Shown one piece after another: positions 34,240-49,600 of a stretch of DNA of 64,000 nucleotides. A program made the translations under genes and the position numbers. The stretch is from a virus (taxonomy: Duplodnaviria; Heunggongvirae; Uroviricota; Caudoviricetes). Positions within the stretch are counted from its first letter, which is position 1. Every line of letters begins with the position of its first letter. The stretch lies in the IMG/VR virus record IMGVR_UViG_2519899835_000003; one strand, given 5' to 3'. The notes under the pieces are model-generated. The model was not told where the DNA came from and searched no databases. It worked only from the letters and a program-made list of their open reading frames with translations.

Positions 34240-35945
34240 CAGTGAGCCATCCAGTGTGTGGTTCTGCGTTTATCCGTTTTCTGTCTTACCCTCACCGGCA
34301 TTCTGGCGCGCATCTCCTGGGCAATCATGTAGCTCATAAGCTGATCATCAAAACAGCCTTCCTGTGCATTCATGGAGCCTTTCGCGTCATAAACGTAGGT
34401 GTTCATTTCTGATAATGTGCCCGTCCAGCGGATCCCCGACAGGCCGTTATTCAGCAGCGTTTTCATTCCCTCAGTCAGGACCGGTTTACTCTGGCGGGTT
34501 GTCAGCCAGCCAAGACGGGGCGTATCGTCGTCATATGCCTGGTCAAGGTGCTGTTCGTTGTAGATATAACGCGTCGGATAGAGTTCCCGGAGTTTCAGGA
34601 TAACGGCATGTCCGTGATTGTTACGCTCCGGCCCCACAAACGCGTTGTTGTACATACGGCAGACCTGCGCAATGAGATGAGCGAAAAGCTCCGCATCGAG
34701 ATGACCAAACCAGTGGGCTACCTGCTCACCATTACTACATCTGATGATATCCAGCGATGAGCGGTCTCCGTGCTCCAGCCCCTCAGCGGTATCCGCTCCG
34801 CATACATACTCTTCATCCGGATCCGGTAGCTCCCAGACCAGCAGATAATTCATCAGCGTCCGGTGCTGTTCGGCTTTATTCCCGTCACGCAGAGACTGCG
34901 CTTTGGTCTTCGTTCCTGTAACCGGTTCAATGTCATAAACAATCAGCGGTGGCGAACAGAATGACTCTGCCTGCAGCGTGCTTTCCGCACTGAACACCCG
35001 TCGTCCGGACGTCAGAAACGCCTCCTGTGGTGTTGAGGGAAACTCCTGCTTCATTTCCTCACGCTGTTCAGTTTCCTTGCAGATGTACCAGTGTTTCTGC
35101 TCATCGGTAAGCGTGATGTTCATTGCTTTTTCAACCGCAGAAAAATACGCTGTTTTTTCCCGTGACAGCTTAAGTCCGCTTTCCGGCACTCTGGCGCTGT
35201 ATTTGAGATCCTGCCACCAGGCGTAAAAATGGAATTTATAATCCTGTGGCGTCAGCGCCAGCCCTGATGCAGTGATTTCCTGTGCCCGGTTACTCATCTC
35301 GTAAAAATCGCCACCCACACCTTCAGCAGTGGATTCATCAAAAATAATGCACTCATCAGAGACGGCATTAAGTGTACCGGTTCGCAGCTCTTTCGCCTTA
35401 GCCGGATATTTTGCGCAAATTTTGCCGTGCTCTGAGATATGCAGGCGCTGCACCGTACCTGAACGGAATGAGGTTGCCACCTGGATACTCGAGCCGTGCC
35501 CAAACAGGATATAGCCACCGCTGGCTCCGCTACGACGTTCAACGATGGTGAATGAGGCTCTCAGCCAGTCAGGAAGATGATCAAACGGTACAGCAATTTT
35601 GGTGCGGAAAATTTCACTGGCAGCCTGTTTATCCTGAGCGACAATCCCGCATTTGAGATGCGGTATGAATAATGCCTGGTCGAGAAGATAAATATCAATG
35701 GCCGTGGAAAACCCCAGCTGGCGTGCTTTCAGGATAATATTTTTATTGTGCATGCTCCGGAACAACTGGCGCTGCGCCGGTCGCATTCTGAAGGTGACCA
35801 GCTCACCTTTTTCGTTCTGTATCTTGTAGAGATGATTGAGCCGCCACCAGGGATTGCTCAGTTTAGTCATGATGAACAGACGTTGTTCGGCCTCTGTCAT
35901 TTCTGACGGTTCATCACATCGCGGTTCATTCTTCCGGAATGTCAT
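34239..35945 (-). CDS. Terminase large subunit
   Basis: 568 aa; ATPase-like N-terminal region and nuclease-like C-terminal region, placed between small-subunit and portal genes. Confidence 0.7.
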   Translation of the reverse strand: MTFRKNEPRCDEPSEMTEAEQRLFIMTKLSNPWWRLNHLYKIQNEKGELVTFRMRPAQRQLFRSMHNKNIILKARQLGFSTAIDIYLLDQALFIPHLKCGIVAQDKQAASEIFRTKIAVPFDHLPDWLRASFTIVERRSGASGGYILFGHGSSIQVATSFRSGTVQRLHISEHGKICAKYPAKAKELRTGTLNAVSDECIIFDESTAEGVGGDFYEMSNRAQEITASGLALTPQDYKFHFYAWWQDLKYSARVPESGLKLSREKTAYFSAVEKAMNITLTDEQKHWYICKETEQREEMKQEFPSTPQEAFLTSGRRVFSAESTLQAESFCSPPLIVYDIEPVTGTKTKAQSLRDGNKAEQHRTLMNYLLVWELPDPDEEYVCGADTAEGLEHGDRSSLDIIRCSNGEQVAHWFGHLDAELFAHLIAQVCRMYNNAFVGPERNNHGHAVILKLRELYPTRYIYNEQHLDQAYDDDTPRLGWLTTRQSKPVLTEGMKTLLNNGLSGIRWTGTLSEMNTYVYDAKGSMNAQEGCFDDQLMSYMIAQEMRARMPVRVRQKTDKRRTTHWMAH

Positions 35946-36741
35946 CCAGTCTCCCCGAATTACTCATTTCATGCAGCGATGACACGATGTCACTGACAGG
36001 CGTAACAACGCCCCGACGCTGGCTGGTCAGAATATCGGTTTCCGCTCTGAGTTTATCTCTGGCAGCGTTGGTTCTTTCCCGGTCAGCACGAAGTTTTGGT
36101 GCTGTTTCAGCCAGAACGTCCAGCGTCAGCAATGAGCGTTCAATTGACTCGATACGGGCAATATTCCGGTCAAGAGCCTGTTCAGCTTTGAGTATTTTGT
36201 CGTACAGAGCAACGCGGGTTTCCACGTCAGCCGCCTCTTTCAGGTCGGCGAACATTTTTTTCAGTGTTCCTGTTACTGAAAGTGCGCGGGCCCGGGTAAA
36301 CACCAGTTCATCGGCAAGTTCCATTCCGACTGCATCATCTATGAGGTTATCTGCCTCGAGATACTTCGCGTATCCACGGTGTCTGACGGCGTGGGTGTTA
36401 CGCTGAGAAAAAGCATTTGAAGGTGGCAAAAGTCTGGAACCACGAGTCCGTTTCGTTTCTGCCAAATTTGCGCATTTTTCATCACAACCATCATCGCCTG
36501 AAGGCTCGTCATGACTGGAGTTGCCGTCAGATTTCTGCGCACTTTTTTGATCATCAATTTGCGCATTTTTCTGCGCACTTTTCTCTGTATTTCTGGGGGA
36601 GTGTTTGCGCAGTTTAATGTACCGCCGAGCCGTGTCATAACTGATATTGTTCTGACGGCACCAGTCCTGAAGCTTTATGCCGGTTTTGACATGTTCGCGT
36701 CGAAATGCCTGCTCCAGCTTTTTCCAGTCCAGCTTTGCCAT
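35926..36741 (-). CDS. Terminase small subunit
   Basis: N-terminal HTH-like segment (ISYDTARRYIKL); overlaps the large-subunit start. Confidence 0.5.
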   Translation of the reverse strand: MAKLDWKKLEQAFRREHVKTGIKLQDWCRQNNISYDTARRYIKLRKHSPRNTEKSAQKNAQIDDQKSAQKSDGNSSHDEPSGDDGCDEKCANLAETKRTRGSRLLPPSNAFSQRNTHAVRHRGYAKYLEADNLIDDAVGMELADELVFTRARALSVTGTLKKMFADLKEAADVETRVALYDKILKAEQALDRNIARIESIERSLLTLDVLAETAPKLRADRERTNAARDKLRAETDILTSQRRGVVTPVSDIVSSLHEMSNSGRLDDIPEE

Positions 36742-37343
36742 GTCACCTTCTGACGTTCTCTGTTAAAAACTGATGCACAATGACTGCTGTAAATTTTCAG
36801 ATTTCACACAGCAGAGCCATGTCTGATTAATGTTTAACCTTATTTAGGTTATATCCGCTTCATTCCACTACAGCACCAGATAGGCTGCCTCGCGGATAAA
36901 TGCCAAAGTCTCCTGATATAGAAACCCGTCGCCACATCGAGCGCTGATCAACATTTGTATATTCACTGCGACAGAAAGAATTTATTTTATTGAATAGTTA
37001 GAAATACAGAATTGCATGCTTTATAAGCATTGACGCACACTTCATTTTTAGCAATATATTCTGTTCTCATAGACGATCAGCCCTGCATGCACTGCCGGAC
37101 ACCGTCGGCAATTTTACAGACCTAAGAGGCAATACCAAAAAGCTAACGCGCTTTATCAAGACTTGAGCAACCAACCAATAAAAAAAGCACCAGTACCGCT
37201 ACCAATGCCCATTTCGTCGTTGTTCACAGCATTCTGTGTACCCACTGTATTTCGCGTCATATCACCACGTCAGACAATCCTTAAGGATTACATAAGATTT
37301 ACGCATAATAATGCCCATTTTCAACACAGACAAGGGAATTTAT

Positions 37344-37925
37344 ATGTTAAATCAAACGCTAACAAAATCTCTTCTTATATTTTTACTTGTCATAATCGTT
37401 TCTGTATCCATCATATACATTGTAAGAACTCCAGTCAGACTTGATGTGAACGATGTCACTGAGATTAACCAGAAACATCCCATTATTTTTCTCATCCGGC
37501 ATGGGGAAAGATGCGATCGCTCCCAAAGAATATGTCTTTCAGCACATGAGGGAATCACAGTAAACGGAGCTAACAAAGCTCAACAATATGGAGATAAATT
37601 CAGAAGAATGTTTCCATACTACAGTCTCTATTCTACAGACACACTCCGAACAATGCAGACAGCCACTTTTTTTTCGGGAGGTAAGACAGCAACTATTCCG
37701 GACATATCGACATGTGATGATAACGCAGTAAATAATATCCTTAAAATATCAAAATCAGATCATGTTACTGTGATTTTCACACATAATCACTGTCTGTCCA
37801 GAATTGCAAAAAAAATGAATGGATGGAGATTTAAACCTGATTATATGGGCACACTGGTTCTGCATCGGGAAAATCACAATCTGATTCTCGACGGACATTT
37901 AAAACCAAACGAGCTTACCCAGTGA
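37344..37925 (+). CDS. Ais/PmrG-like histidine-phosphatase-family protein (putative LPS core heptose(II)-phosphate phosphatase), membrane-anchored
   Basis: Opposite strand to all flanking phage genes; N-terminal TM helix; catalytic FLIRHGERCDRS (RHG motif) and ...VIFTHNHCLSRIAK...FKPDY colinear with E. coli Ais as recalled. AT-rich ~570-bp upstream region. Confidence 0.65.
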   Translation: MLNQTLTKSLLIFLLVIIVSVSIIYIVRTPVRLDVNDVTEINQKHPIIFLIRHGERCDRSQRICLSAHEGITVNGANKAQQYGDKFRRMFPYYSLYSTDTLRTMQTATFFSGGKTATIPDISTCDDNAVNNILKISKSDHVTVIFTHNHCLSRIAKKMNGWRFKPDYMGTLVLHRENHNLILDGHLKPNELTQ

Positions 37926-38005
37926 TCCATTTGTTGATAATGCACTGGCATTGATTCAGGTTATATCTCTCCTCATAAAAAAGGCCAGCGATTGAGCTGG
38001 CTCTG

Positions 38006-38464
38006 TTAATCGAGGCATTGCATCCTGATGTACTCCTGCAGGTAGTTAACCTGCGCGGTTATCTTGTCGATTCCACTTCGGAGACGGTAATAATTGAGTT
38101 CAGCATCTGCTGTAAGTCCTGAGCTTTCTCCATCGCCCATGCCGCTGGCTCCGGTCGTTGACTTTGCACAGGTGGCGGCGACTTGCAGGCGCTTACGCCC
38201 AGCAGAAACATCAGCACGGAGACTTTCAATAGTCGCGTTAGCATCAGCAAGCTCCCTGGTGTATCTGGCATCGAGTGCAGCAACATCACGCTGGCGCTGC
38301 TGTATGTCAGCAATGGTGGCGTTCGCCTGGCTGAGTTTTGTCTTCGCATCATCTCGCTGCTCTTTGTAGGTGATGGCGTTATCACGGTAATGGTCTGTTG
38401 CCAGCCACAGCGATCCACAACCAAGCAGCAGGACAATAAGCACGCCATACAGCACACGATTCAT
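38006..38464 (-). CDS. Rz-type inner-membrane spanin
   Basis: MNRVLYGVLIVLLLGCGSLW N-terminal TM, coiled-coil body; last gene of holin-lysozyme-Rz order. Confidence 0.7.
   Translation of the reverse strand: MNRVLYGVLIVLLLGCGSLWLATDHYRDNAITYKEQRDDAKTKLSQANATIADIQQRQRDVAALDARYTRELADANATIESLRADVSAGRKRLQVAATCAKSTTGASGMGDGESSGLTADAELNYYRLRSGIDKITAQVNYLQEYIRMQCLD
38059..38211 (-). CDS. Rz1-type outer-membrane lipoprotein spanin, embedded in Rz in +1 frame
   Basis: Lipobox LLGVSAC followed by proline-rich CKSPPPVQSQRPEP; located wholly within Rz. Confidence 0.5.
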   Translation of the reverse strand: MFLLGVSACKSPPPVQSQRPEPAAWAMEKAQDLQQMLNSIITVSEVESTR

Positions 38465-42133: not shown

Positions 42134-42619
42134 GAATCCTCCCGGCCGGGATAATATTGTGAGTAAAATAAGGAGCGGGCTGAAGTCCGGAAGTTACAGG
42201 ACAATGGCAGAAGGGAGACTACAGCCCGCAATTCGAAAAAGGTCGCGCAGTTGCGCAGAGTGATTACTATGGGGTATTATTCGCCAGCTGAAATATTACT
42301 TCACGTTTCATTGTTCATTCCTTGCCGCCCGCGTCTCCCAGCGCGGGCTTTTTTGTCCATAAGAAAGCCCCTCCGGAGAGGGGCTGGAGAGTGGCGCTAT
42401 GTGCCATTGCATGGTGCCGGGTGCCTCCCGGTGAGTTCAGCCCGGTGCCACTAAACCCGCGTCATTCTCGTTTTGATAATCAGAGATTATACCGTCACCA
42501 GTCGCCCCTCCGCTCAGGGGGATTCACCATGCAGTTTTTTCTAACAAATTCTCATCCGGGCAGACAACATTCAACTGACTTAATTGTGAGGTATGTAACA
42601 TTCCCGTTGAACGGATACA

Positions 42620-45649: not shown

Positions 45650-45923
45650 AATGACGCCCTCGAGTGGTTTCTTAATAACTCACCACCGACGACGCCAATC
45701 GTCTGGTGGTGAACTGTGCAGGGTTGGCGTAACCGGGAAACCGACCGGCGCGGATCTCTCCGCCCCCACACAGCCCACCATAATTCAGATGTGCGCGTGC
45801 ATACGACAATAAAAAACACGCTCGCGGCGTGTATCTGTCGCGGTCTCTATCCAGGACGCCAATCCCGACGCCAGATTTTGCTGGCGCGTGAGGAATATAG
45901 CCCCGAATAAATCATCACGTCAA

Positions 45924-47233: not shown

Positions 47234-47575
47234 AATGACCTCGCGTTTCGATAATTTTTACCTCGCCACCGTCAGGTGCTAATCATCGTGGTGGCGAACT
47301 GTGCGGGGTTAGCACTACCGGTCGAAACATCCGGCGAGCCTTTCGGCTCCCCCACACAGCCCGCCATAAATCGCGAATGTGACTGTGCTTAGCGCATAAA
47401 AAAACCGCCAGCGCGGTTATGCACCGTTTCGATATCCGGGGTGCTAATCCCGACGCCAGGTTTTGCTGGCGCGTGAGGAATATAGCCCCGAACACGCGAC
47501 GTTGTCAAACTGATGGCATTGCAGATCCCTACGCAATGTAACACTATGTGTTATACATTAATAACGGAACAAAAA

Positions 47576-49199: not shown

Positions 49200-49412
49200 T
49201 TACTCCTCAGGTTCGTAAGCTGTGAAGACAGCAACCTCCGTCTGACCGGTTCGGATTCGTACCTCGCATAGGTCTTTCCTCGTTACCAGTGCCGTCACTA
49301 CGACGGTAATACAGATGACGATCAGGGCGACTAACATCGCCTTTTGCTGCTTCATAGCCTGCTTCTCCTTGCCTTTCGGCGCGTAAGAGGCTAACCTACA
49401 TGTGTCTAGCAT
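49200..49412 (-). CDS. hok: mok/hok type I toxin locus (Hok toxin = 49200..49355, in-frame Mok extension to 49412)
   Basis: MKQQKAMLVALIVICITVVVTALVTRKDLCEVRIRTGQTEVAVFTAYEPEE is a canonical Hok/Gef; upstream in-frame MLDTCRLASYAPKGKEKQA mirrors mokC. Hairpin plus T run downstream near 49,112-49,132. Confidence 0.8.
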   Translation of the reverse strand: MLDTCRLASYAPKGKEKQAMKQQKAMLVALIVICITVVVTALVTRKDLCEVRIRTGQTEVAVFTAYEPEE

Positions 49413-49600
49413 GAAATTGGCCTCAGATTAATGTTAGGCGTCTTGCAGGACGCGTAATGTTAACTGGGGTTTTTCTCTGTCTGCCTTACGGTGGCATGCC
49501 CGAGGCAGACAGCCTCAAGCACCCGCAGCAATTCTACTTAACTCTCGCTTTACCGCAAACCGTTTTTACCCGATATGGGAATTCCCATATCGTAATGAAT

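Follow-up and report, generated by a model that had tools for sequence, protein, structure and literature searches.

The window analysed here, a 64,000-nucleotide stretch of the Caudoviricetes virus record IMGVR_UViG_2519899835_000003, comes from a Shiga-toxin-type (Stx-type) prophage of Escherichia coli. We focus on one of its genes, an intact open reading frame (ORF) on the plus strand (positions 37344–37925), which almost certainly encodes a histidine phosphatase of the Ais/PmrG subfamily, a group named for heptose(II)-phosphate in the core of lipopolysaccharide (LPS). The gene occupies the slot that holds bor in related phages, recurs at this site in otherwise different prophages and is preceded by a conserved element with the architecture of a PmrA-type promoter. 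These features suggest a phage passenger gene that may be wired to a host two-component system.

The phosphatase gene lies between the small terminase gene (terS, 35926–36741, minus strand), from which it diverges, and the Rz gene (‘lysis protein’, minus strand, stop at 38006), with which it converges. In the annotated prophages of strains NCCP15648 and O104:H4, it is the sole plus-strand gene within a minus-strand run of roughly 37–39 kb. An earlier note on this DNA, made from the letters alone, had described it as the only plus-strand gene in about 45 kb of late genes. Its solitary orientation is borne out by the annotations, but the run is shorter than was claimed and also takes in the nin and Q genes. 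The same note had placed the gene behind a 570-bp AT-rich region. Low GC content is indeed found (36–42% over positions 36700–38050, versus 50–56% in both flanks), and the intergenic region upstream of the gene measures 602 bp.

The note had further proposed that the gene sits at the lambda bor position between Rz and the small terminase gene, and direct comparison with Stx2 phage I agrees with this placement. In a 933W-type Stx2 phage, the gene order is terS, a conserved 155-nt segment, ORF84, bor (opposite to the late strand) and Rz. Homology to Stx2 phage I extends from terS to approximately position 36,915–36,930 of the window, where it ends, and the terS-proximal segment is about 78% identical. 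The phosphatase gene thus fills the bor slot in the orientation of bor, antisense to the late genes, as part of a low-GC module (Table 1). No alignment between the bor segment of Stx2 phage I and this module was found beyond the terS-proximal 190–230 nt, and no homology to Bor was detected in that comparison.

Morons are independently transcribed inserts in phage operons. The site shows variable presence of its cargo, given that 933W-type phages carry ORF84 and bor there, and the base composition of the module differs from that of its flanks as described above. We are highly confident that the phosphatase gene is a selected, mobile moron residing in the bor slot. Like bor of lambda and 933W, it is an AT-rich envelope gene of a prophage, predicted to be transcribed independently, in the same slot and the same antisense orientation. 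Unlike bor, which is unrelated in sequence and encodes a small lipoprotein, it encodes an enzyme, and its promoter seems to be under the control of a two-component regulator of the host.

The closest match to the whole window is found in strain NCCP15648, with 99.8% identity. The prophage of O104:H4 strain 2011C-3493 is 98.5% identical with indels over the full length, and is therefore not the same element letter for letter. The 1,264-bp interval from terS to Rz is 100% identical in O104:H4 genomes among the matches listed, is present with at least 99% identity in 43 of 5,426 complete E. coli genomes, and is 99.4% identical in the Stx1 phage GER2 (Sepvirinae, Oslovirus).

Translation is assigned to the ATG at 37344 rather than to an in-frame ATG at 37311 that would extend the product to 204 amino acids. 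The downstream start is preferred because a Shine–Dalgarno sequence precedes it (Table 1), because it is the start given by RefSeq and the Prokaryotic Genome Annotation Pipeline, because homologues begin at the same place in the alignment, and because the upstream ATG overlaps the predicted −10 hexamer. The RefSeq product name is that of an Ais/PmrG-type LPS core heptose(II)-phosphate phosphatase.

A mobile clade of Ais/PmrG-type phosphatases

Profile searches place the protein within a defined subfamily. It scores 202 bits (cut-off 142) against NCBIfam model NF011945 (PRK15416, the LPS core heptose(II)-phosphate phosphatase subfamily), spanning model positions 15–199 of 201, and 28.9 bits (gathering threshold 21.7) against Pfam PF00300 (His_Phos_1), where residues 48–114 align with the N-terminal third of the model only. 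A BLASTP comparison, which had been put forward as a check on the earlier identification, yields 43% identity to chromosomal E. coli Ais (E = 6e-44) over residues 32–186. The protein had been said to align with Ais along its length; this holds for the catalytic domain, and the N-terminal 31 residues fall outside the alignment. The narrower NF052369 ‘PmrG’ equivalog model gives 113 bits, below its cut-off of 170. In our judgement, this miss does not speak against relatedness, because the genuine Ais of E. coli and PmrG of Salmonella each score 146 bits and also fall short.

Both catalytic motifs are intact. In an alignment of 33 sequences that takes in both mobile and chromosomal clades, residues R52, H53, R56, C57, D58, R59, S60, C64, R102, Q105, H147, H149 and C150 are invariant. 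The RHG motif that had been noticed from the sequence (R52-H53-G54) is present and was recorded as invariant across the family, and it is joined by the arginines R56, R59 and R102, the last of these in an RTxQTA motif, and by the second catalytic histidine of the superfamily (Table 1). Four cysteines (C57, C64, C124 and C150) are conserved, a pattern that would fit a disulfide-bonded periplasmic domain.

A model computed with AlphaFold2 from the 33-member alignment has a predicted local distance difference test score of 92.6 and a predicted template-modelling (TM) score of 0.86, and consists of an N-terminal helix (residues 2–28) followed by an alpha/beta domain. When this model was compared with the PDB by using Foldseek, the top 50 matches listed were all of the histidine-phosphatase fold, including SixA, phosphoserine phosphatases, PGAM5 and the phosphatase domain of MutT1-type proteins (E values of about 1e-7 and TM-scores of 0.5–0.68). 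A sequence search of the PDB detected no structure of the Ais/PmrG family (best E = 1.2, spurious), and the protein matches no family in PHROGs. The profile matches, the similarity to Ais, the modelled fold and the Foldseek matches all agree with the original identification of an Ais/PmrG-like phosphatase.

The phosphatase nevertheless stands apart from chromosomal Ais and PmrG. A neighbour-joining tree separates the chromosomal proteins of Escherichia, Salmonella and Citrobacter from an accessory clade that includes the window protein, and scores against NF011945 divide along the same line, at 366–392 bits for chromosomal proteins versus 168–202 bits for accessory ones. Orthology would call for membership in the same clade and for synteny with arnB/pbgP. 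The prophage protein falls in the other clade, and chromosomal ais adjoins arnB whereas this copy resides in a prophage, away from the arn operon. The protein is therefore best classified, on its phylogeny and gene context, as a mobile paralogue and not an orthologue of Ais. The prophage and chromosomal versions share the subfamily, the motifs RHGERCDRS and THNHC, the four cysteines, an approximately equal size, an export signal and PmrA-type control, predicted in the case of the prophage gene. A further difference lies in the catalytic triplet, which is RHG in the prophage protein but RHA in K-12-type Ais of E. coli and in Salmonella PmrG.

The N termini of the two clades also differ. Accessory proteins carry 18–20 uncharged residues that run directly into a conserved R/K-T-P and lack a small-x-small motif, and the 19-residue segment of the prophage protein, followed by R-T-P, conforms to this pattern (Table 1). 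In contrast, chromosomal Ais and PmrG have a shorter hydrophobic core of 13–17 residues followed by ..HAAWSSNG or ..QHAWSGNG, which resembles a cleavable signal peptide. The membrane anchor suggested at the outset is thus supported as a predicted N-terminal membrane-targeting segment by the hydrophobic stretch and by the modelled helix. We think it probable, judging from the sequence pattern and the model, that this segment is an uncleaved signal anchor, which would hold the catalytic domain at the inner membrane on its periplasmic side.

Diverged copies of the gene occupy the same site in other phages. A sensitive DNA search of complete E. coli genomes recovered gene copies with 67–81% nucleotide identity, and copies whose products are 51–76% identical in amino acid sequence reside in at least five other lambdoid prophages (strains E10, PSJ-22, C311, A10 and W13-16). 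In all five of these, the copy is flanked by the last lysis gene and the small terminase gene and is antisense to both. These prophages differ in their lysis modules (lysozyme plus Rz, M15 peptidase or GH108) and in their terminases (DUF1441-type or lambda-like TerS). Pairwise ratios of nonsynonymous to synonymous substitution (dN/dS) among the prophage copies are 0.12–0.34, with dS values ranging from 0.7 to more than 2 (saturation). Recurrence and substitution patterns together indicate that purifying selection maintains the gene, which has been passed between phage backbones.

The gene is rare. A copy covering at least 80% of its length is found in 52 of the 5,426 complete E. coli genomes, 22 viral contigs in IMG/VR encode relatives with 60–100% identity, and phage GER2 is the sole carrier among 50,697 phage records. 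The GER2 record (MG710528, 8642–9184) is annotated with only a 273-nt gene fragment and a spurious 120-nt antisense ORF. A tblastn search, however, shows that the GER2 gene is intact and 99.5% identical over residues 1–193, and thus a Stx1-converting phage carries the full gene.

Relatives are also found on plasmids. More than 1,400 mostly conjugative plasmids carry one, and relatives with 37–52% identity fill the TraG slot of IncI-type clusters that encode a type IV secretion system (T4SS). TraG of an O104:H4 pESBL plasmid is annotated with an identical product name, and a transposon-sequencing screen showed that transfer does not require it (PMC4288162). Other plasmid relatives follow an EAL-domain gene beside a SPATE (serine protease autotransporter of Enterobacteriaceae) gene, follow a chaperone-usher operon and an EAL gene, lie near CS1-type fimbrial genes behind an insertion sequence (IS), or follow two AraC-family genes. 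The last of these contexts resembles the AfrR/AfrS arrangement of the AF/R1 pilus; a literature search returned only unrelated uses of the acronym. One truncated and frameshifted relative (P0066) is named AfrS by one source. Like the prophage protein, the TraG-slot and fimbrial-plasmid relatives are mobile, match NF011945 (168 bits for P0049, 193 for P0022 and 202 for P0036) and have an N-terminal hydrophobic segment. They differ from it in residing within operons (T4SS, post-EAL or post-AraC). The subfamily therefore appears to be broadly mobile and tends to accompany surface machinery.

Promoter architecture

Upstream of the phosphatase gene lies a direct repeat that resembles a PmrA/BasR box, followed by a predicted −10 hexamer (Table 1). 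We compared the upstream regions of eight lineages, comprising seven diverged copies and, as the eighth of the set, a chromosomal copy from Dryocola, by anchoring them on a conserved block. The upstream regions of the seven diverged copies cannot be aligned except for this one block immediately before the gene. Across the eight lineages, it has the form (C/A/G)TTAA(G/T), 5 nt, (C/T)(A/T)TAA(G/T), exactly 10 nt and a −10-like hexamer that reads AATAAT, TATAAT, CATAAT or TATATT, and the box begins 64–73 nt before the ATG. On average, a half-site column is identical in 6.75 of the 8 lineages and a hexamer column in 7.0, compared with 3.75–4.0 for columns of the flanks, and the TTAA/TAA cores of the half-sites are kept in seven or eight of the eight lineages. 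The box and the −10 hexamer are the only conserved upstream columns, although synonymous sites are saturated.

This arrangement matches that of known PmrA-controlled promoters. PmrA half-sites read CTTAAG and xTTAAT (CCTAAG in pbgP) with a 5-bp spacer (PMC3973317), and the PmrA box takes the place of the −35 element (PMC10570014). Both the half-site spacing and a box in place of the −35 element, at a fixed distance from the −10 hexamer, are found here. Indeed, the E. coli arnB promoter, read from the fetched locus, consists of CTTAAGGTTAAGTTAAT, 10 nt and TAAAAT, and thus has identical spacing. A consensus scan of the plus strand upstream of the gene revealed no sigma-70 −35/−10 pair, as expected for an activator-dependent promoter. 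We consider it likely, from this architecture and its conservation, that the promoter depends on PmrA/BasR. The gene is accordingly predicted to be PmrA-inducible and not constitutive, because the conserved element consists of a PmrA/BasR box and a −10 hexamer.

A different promoter, a TTGACG...AATATA pair near 37,030–37,062, had been named in the earlier note. Both hexamers exist (37030–37035 and 37053–37058), but they are weak, absent from the consensus scan and not conserved. AATATA matches TATAAT at three of six positions, and the pair, conserved only in the nearest lineage (L004), was rejected as the gene's main promoter, a role that we consider unlikely for it.

No PmrA box precedes the family members located within plasmid operons or immediately after an IS element. 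This distribution fits a box promoter that would be specific to stand-alone, mostly prophage-borne copies. The E. coli arnB–ais intergenic region contains one canonical PmrA box (L003, 835–851), whose orientation and spacing suit arnB and which precedes the ais start by about 190 nt. A second canonical box before chromosomal ais was not found in this region, and we therefore claim no direct homology between the prophage promoter and that of ais. By sequence, the prophage copy appears to have a more canonical PmrA promoter than chromosomal ais.

Table 1 Features of the phosphatase locus (window positions) and plasmid relatives (positions within the named loci)
Feature	Position	Strand	Remarks
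Low-GC module replacing ORF84–bor of 933W-type phages	36930–38005		From the terS-proximal conserved segment to the Rz stop
PmrA/BasR-box-like direct repeat CTTAAG-GATTA-CATAAG	37280–37296	+	In the place of the −35 element; one mismatch to YTTAAK-N5-YTTAAK
Predicted −10 hexamer AATAAT	37307–37312	+	10 nt after the box; predicted transcription start at about 37318–37320
Shine–Dalgarno AAGGGA	37332–37337	+	Read from the sequence; 6 nt before ATG 37344
Phosphatase coding sequence	37344–37925	+	193 amino acids; Ais/PmrG-subfamily histidine phosphatase, mobile clade
Predicted uncleaved signal anchor, residues 9–27 (SLLIFLLVIIVSVSIIYIV)	37368–37424	+	19 uncharged residues, no small-x-small motif, helix in the AlphaFold2 model
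Catalytic motif RHGERCDRS, R52–S60	37497–37523	+	R52, H53, R56, C57, D58, R59 and S60 invariant
Second catalytic-site motif THNHC, T146–C150	37779–37793	+	H147, H149 and C150 invariant; contains the second histidine of the superfamily
Hairpin and T-run	37984–38001	-	Terminator scan: GCCAGCTCAATCGCTGGC then CTTTTTTATG; GC-rich, directly after the Rz stop, between convergent genes
Plasmid relatives	L128 3580–4209; L113 7001–7582; L117 7001–7585; L123 6001–6582; L126 3357–3941		None with a PmrA box

Predicted function and alternative explanations

We hold with moderate confidence that the gene is a PmrA-controlled moron for a periplasmic LPS-core phosphatase, a judgement that applies to the core of the following chain of steps. 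The gene would serve in lysogenic conversion as a self-contained transcription unit that a Sepvirinae (933W-like) prophage carries within its late operon, in antisense orientation. In a lysogen, it would probably not be expressed in ordinary media; Fe3+, Al3+ or mild-acid stress would switch it on through the host BasS/BasR (PmrB/PmrA) system, alongside arn, eptA and chromosomal ais. The enzyme would face the periplasm, most likely tethered to the inner membrane by its uncleaved N-terminal signal anchor, and would remove a phosphate from the LPS inner core, by homology that of Hep(II) (heptose II), at the periplasmic face before LPS export. Loss of this phosphate would lower the negative charge of the LPS core. 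During lytic growth, Q-antiterminated late transcription would cross the gene antisense.

Work on the host genes provides a setting for this model. The genes ais, arn, eptA and basR are co-regulated as one set under iron stress (PMC13405929), and Salmonella PmrG is described as dephosphorylating Hep(II) in a passage of another study that cites earlier work (PMC8129183, citing Nishino 2006). By analogy, Hep(II)-phosphate is a plausible candidate for the substrate, which we put forward tentatively. It is possible that the host benefits through metal tolerance, outer-membrane properties or receptor editing, and a role in receptor masking is conceivable.

Several observations weigh against this model. 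The box pattern, when at most one mismatch is allowed, has five matches in the window compared with 2.96 expected and is not significant alone, and therefore the argument rests on position, spacing and conservation. Half-site 2 reads CATAAG, with A where the consensus has T. The terminator scan found no convincing plus-strand terminator downstream of the gene, and the assignment of a signal anchor is based on hydrophobic length, the lack of a cleavage motif and the AlphaFold2 helix. To our knowledge, the activity of E. coli Ais has itself been assigned by similarity only. The 43% identity and the separate clade imply that substrate specificity may differ from that of PmrG. A full-text literature search for the locus tag and the protein accession returned no match and no experiment or transcript data. 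Finally, deletion of chromosomal pmrG in a PmrA-constitutive E. coli strain left polymyxin B resistance unchanged (PMC8129183), and this result also makes it doubtful that the prophage gene changes antimicrobial-peptide resistance, as had been suggested in the earlier note.

A protein of the same family, location and regulation could instead act on another periplasmic phospho-substrate, such as Hep(I)-phosphate or Hep(I)-pyrophosphoethanolamine, lipid A 1-diphosphate, groups linked to 3-deoxy-D-manno-octulosonic acid (Kdo) or a phosphoprotein. Its main role would then be receptor editing or superinfection exclusion on behalf of the mobile element, and not metal or peptide tolerance. The separation from the Ais/PmrG clade at 43% identity and the dissimilar N-terminal targeting segment are compatible with this possibility, as are relatives in the contexts of surface machines, namely the IncI T4SS TraG slot on more than 1,400 plasmids (PMC4288162) and sites beside fimbrial operons. 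The same prophage also carries the envelope and exclusion morons cor and lom. However, both clades have the same RHGERCDRS and THNHC motifs, PmrA-type regulation is retained as in ais/pmrG, and the protein matches no PADLOC defence model. We regard a different substrate as unlikely on balance, while giving it real weight.

A broader proposal, which we judge to be decidedly unlikely, is that several kinds of mobile element use this clade in common to edit the LPS core, namely prophages with the gene in the bor slot, the IncI conjugation apparatus and fimbrial virulence plasmids. If it were correct, removal of core phosphate would alter docking or assembly at the outer membrane, with possible exclusion of superinfecting phages, altered recognition by the IncI thin pilus or easier insertion of surface machines. 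In prophages, the gene would be wired to host PmrAB, and its phenotype would be conditional on the gut or iron environment.

The upstream repeat might also be something other than a PmrA site. In that case, the gene could be expressed constitutively from another promoter, such as that near 37,030, or could answer to another or phage-encoded regulator that recognizes TTAA repeats. The frequency of box matches in the window and the deviation in half-site 2 favour this explanation, as does the palindromic nature of CTTAAG, by which the box scores on the minus strand as well. Nevertheless, the promoter near 37,030 is confined to the nearest lineage and fails the consensus scan, whereas the 5-bp half-site spacing, the fixed 10-nt gap to the −10 hexamer and the lack of a −35 element reproduce the arnB/pbgP architecture. 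Such expression without PmrA is very unlikely in our view. A decaying or neutral hitchhiker without function in the lysogen is the least probable alternative and can be given almost no credence: the rarity of the gene among complete E. coli genomes, the frameshift in relative P0066 and a plasmid copy (L007) with C57Y and a poor −10 hexamer would fit it, but the ORF is intact in every prophage lineage examined, dN/dS is low with saturated dS, the catalytic residues are invariant, the promoter elements are conserved, and the gene has been acquired or retained independently in different phage backbones.

If the model of a PmrA-controlled LPS-core phosphatase is correct, the 2011 outbreak lineage O104:H4 and some Stx1 phages (for example, GER2) carry a second, phage-borne LPS-core phosphatase that responds to PmrA/BasR. 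The gene would then clearly exemplify a phage passenger that has been connected to a two-component regulon of its host, and it would appear silent in phenotype tests unless these include PmrA-inducing conditions or a basR-constitutive strain. Conversion genes that modify LPS are familiar from phages of Shigella and Salmonella, in which gtrABC brings about glucosylation and oac brings about O-acetylation of the O-antigen. As with those systems, a prophage gene would alter the LPS of its host, which could affect the availability of receptors and interactions with the host. However, gtrABC and oac add groups to the O-antigen, whereas the phosphatase is predicted to remove inner-core phosphate under PmrA control. 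We know of no other phage conversion gene that acts on inner-core phosphates instead of the O-antigen, and this one would be the first.

The enzyme family, the regulation of ais/pmrG by PmrA and the existence of morons in the bor slot are already established, and therefore the advance is incremental. In the searchable literature, we found no recognition of the distinct anchored clade as a recurrent moron of lambdoid phages, no report that this moron has a canonical PmrA-type promoter and no experiment on it. The phosphatase gene is, on the comparisons made here, a credible candidate for a surface-modifying passenger gene and does not represent a new kind of system.

Other features of the prophage

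Downstream of the phosphatase gene, the minus-strand hairpin that follows the Rz stop (Table 1) lacks a T-run after it on the plus strand, and its fold is not exceptional (z = −1.6). Speculatively, it may limit antisense read-through into the gene in the lysogen. On the other side of the gene, positions 36908–37247 are 80% identical over 340 bp to the small late-region ORFs L32 and L33 of phage phiP27. A minus-strand ORF of 34 amino acids (37156–37260, MTRNTVGTQNAVNNDEMGIGSGTGAFFIGWLLKS), similar to the C-terminal part of L32 of phiP27 and unmatched in PHROGs, may represent a small late gene located between terS and the moron.

The 765-bp gap between the Q antiterminator gene and a SASA/NanS-type esterase gene contains no stx, which Stx phages carry at this place. 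The Rfam small RNA STnc100 is found in the gap (42355–42560, minus strand, 165 bits). No transfer RNA genes were detected within the window.

Two copies each of the C4 antisense RNA, isrK and the c4-a1b1 target element are present on the minus strand (45702–45900 and 47287–47485). This duplicated set is a P1/P7-type antirepressor immunity module and lies beside KilAC/Ant antirepressor genes. In the early region, the sok antitoxin RNA (49350–49524, minus strand, 110 bits) adjoins a hokD-type toxin gene. Related prophages also carry a second Hok/Gef gene, RelE/ParE and Doc toxins, cor and an Ail/Lom gene, and thus the element is rich in morons.

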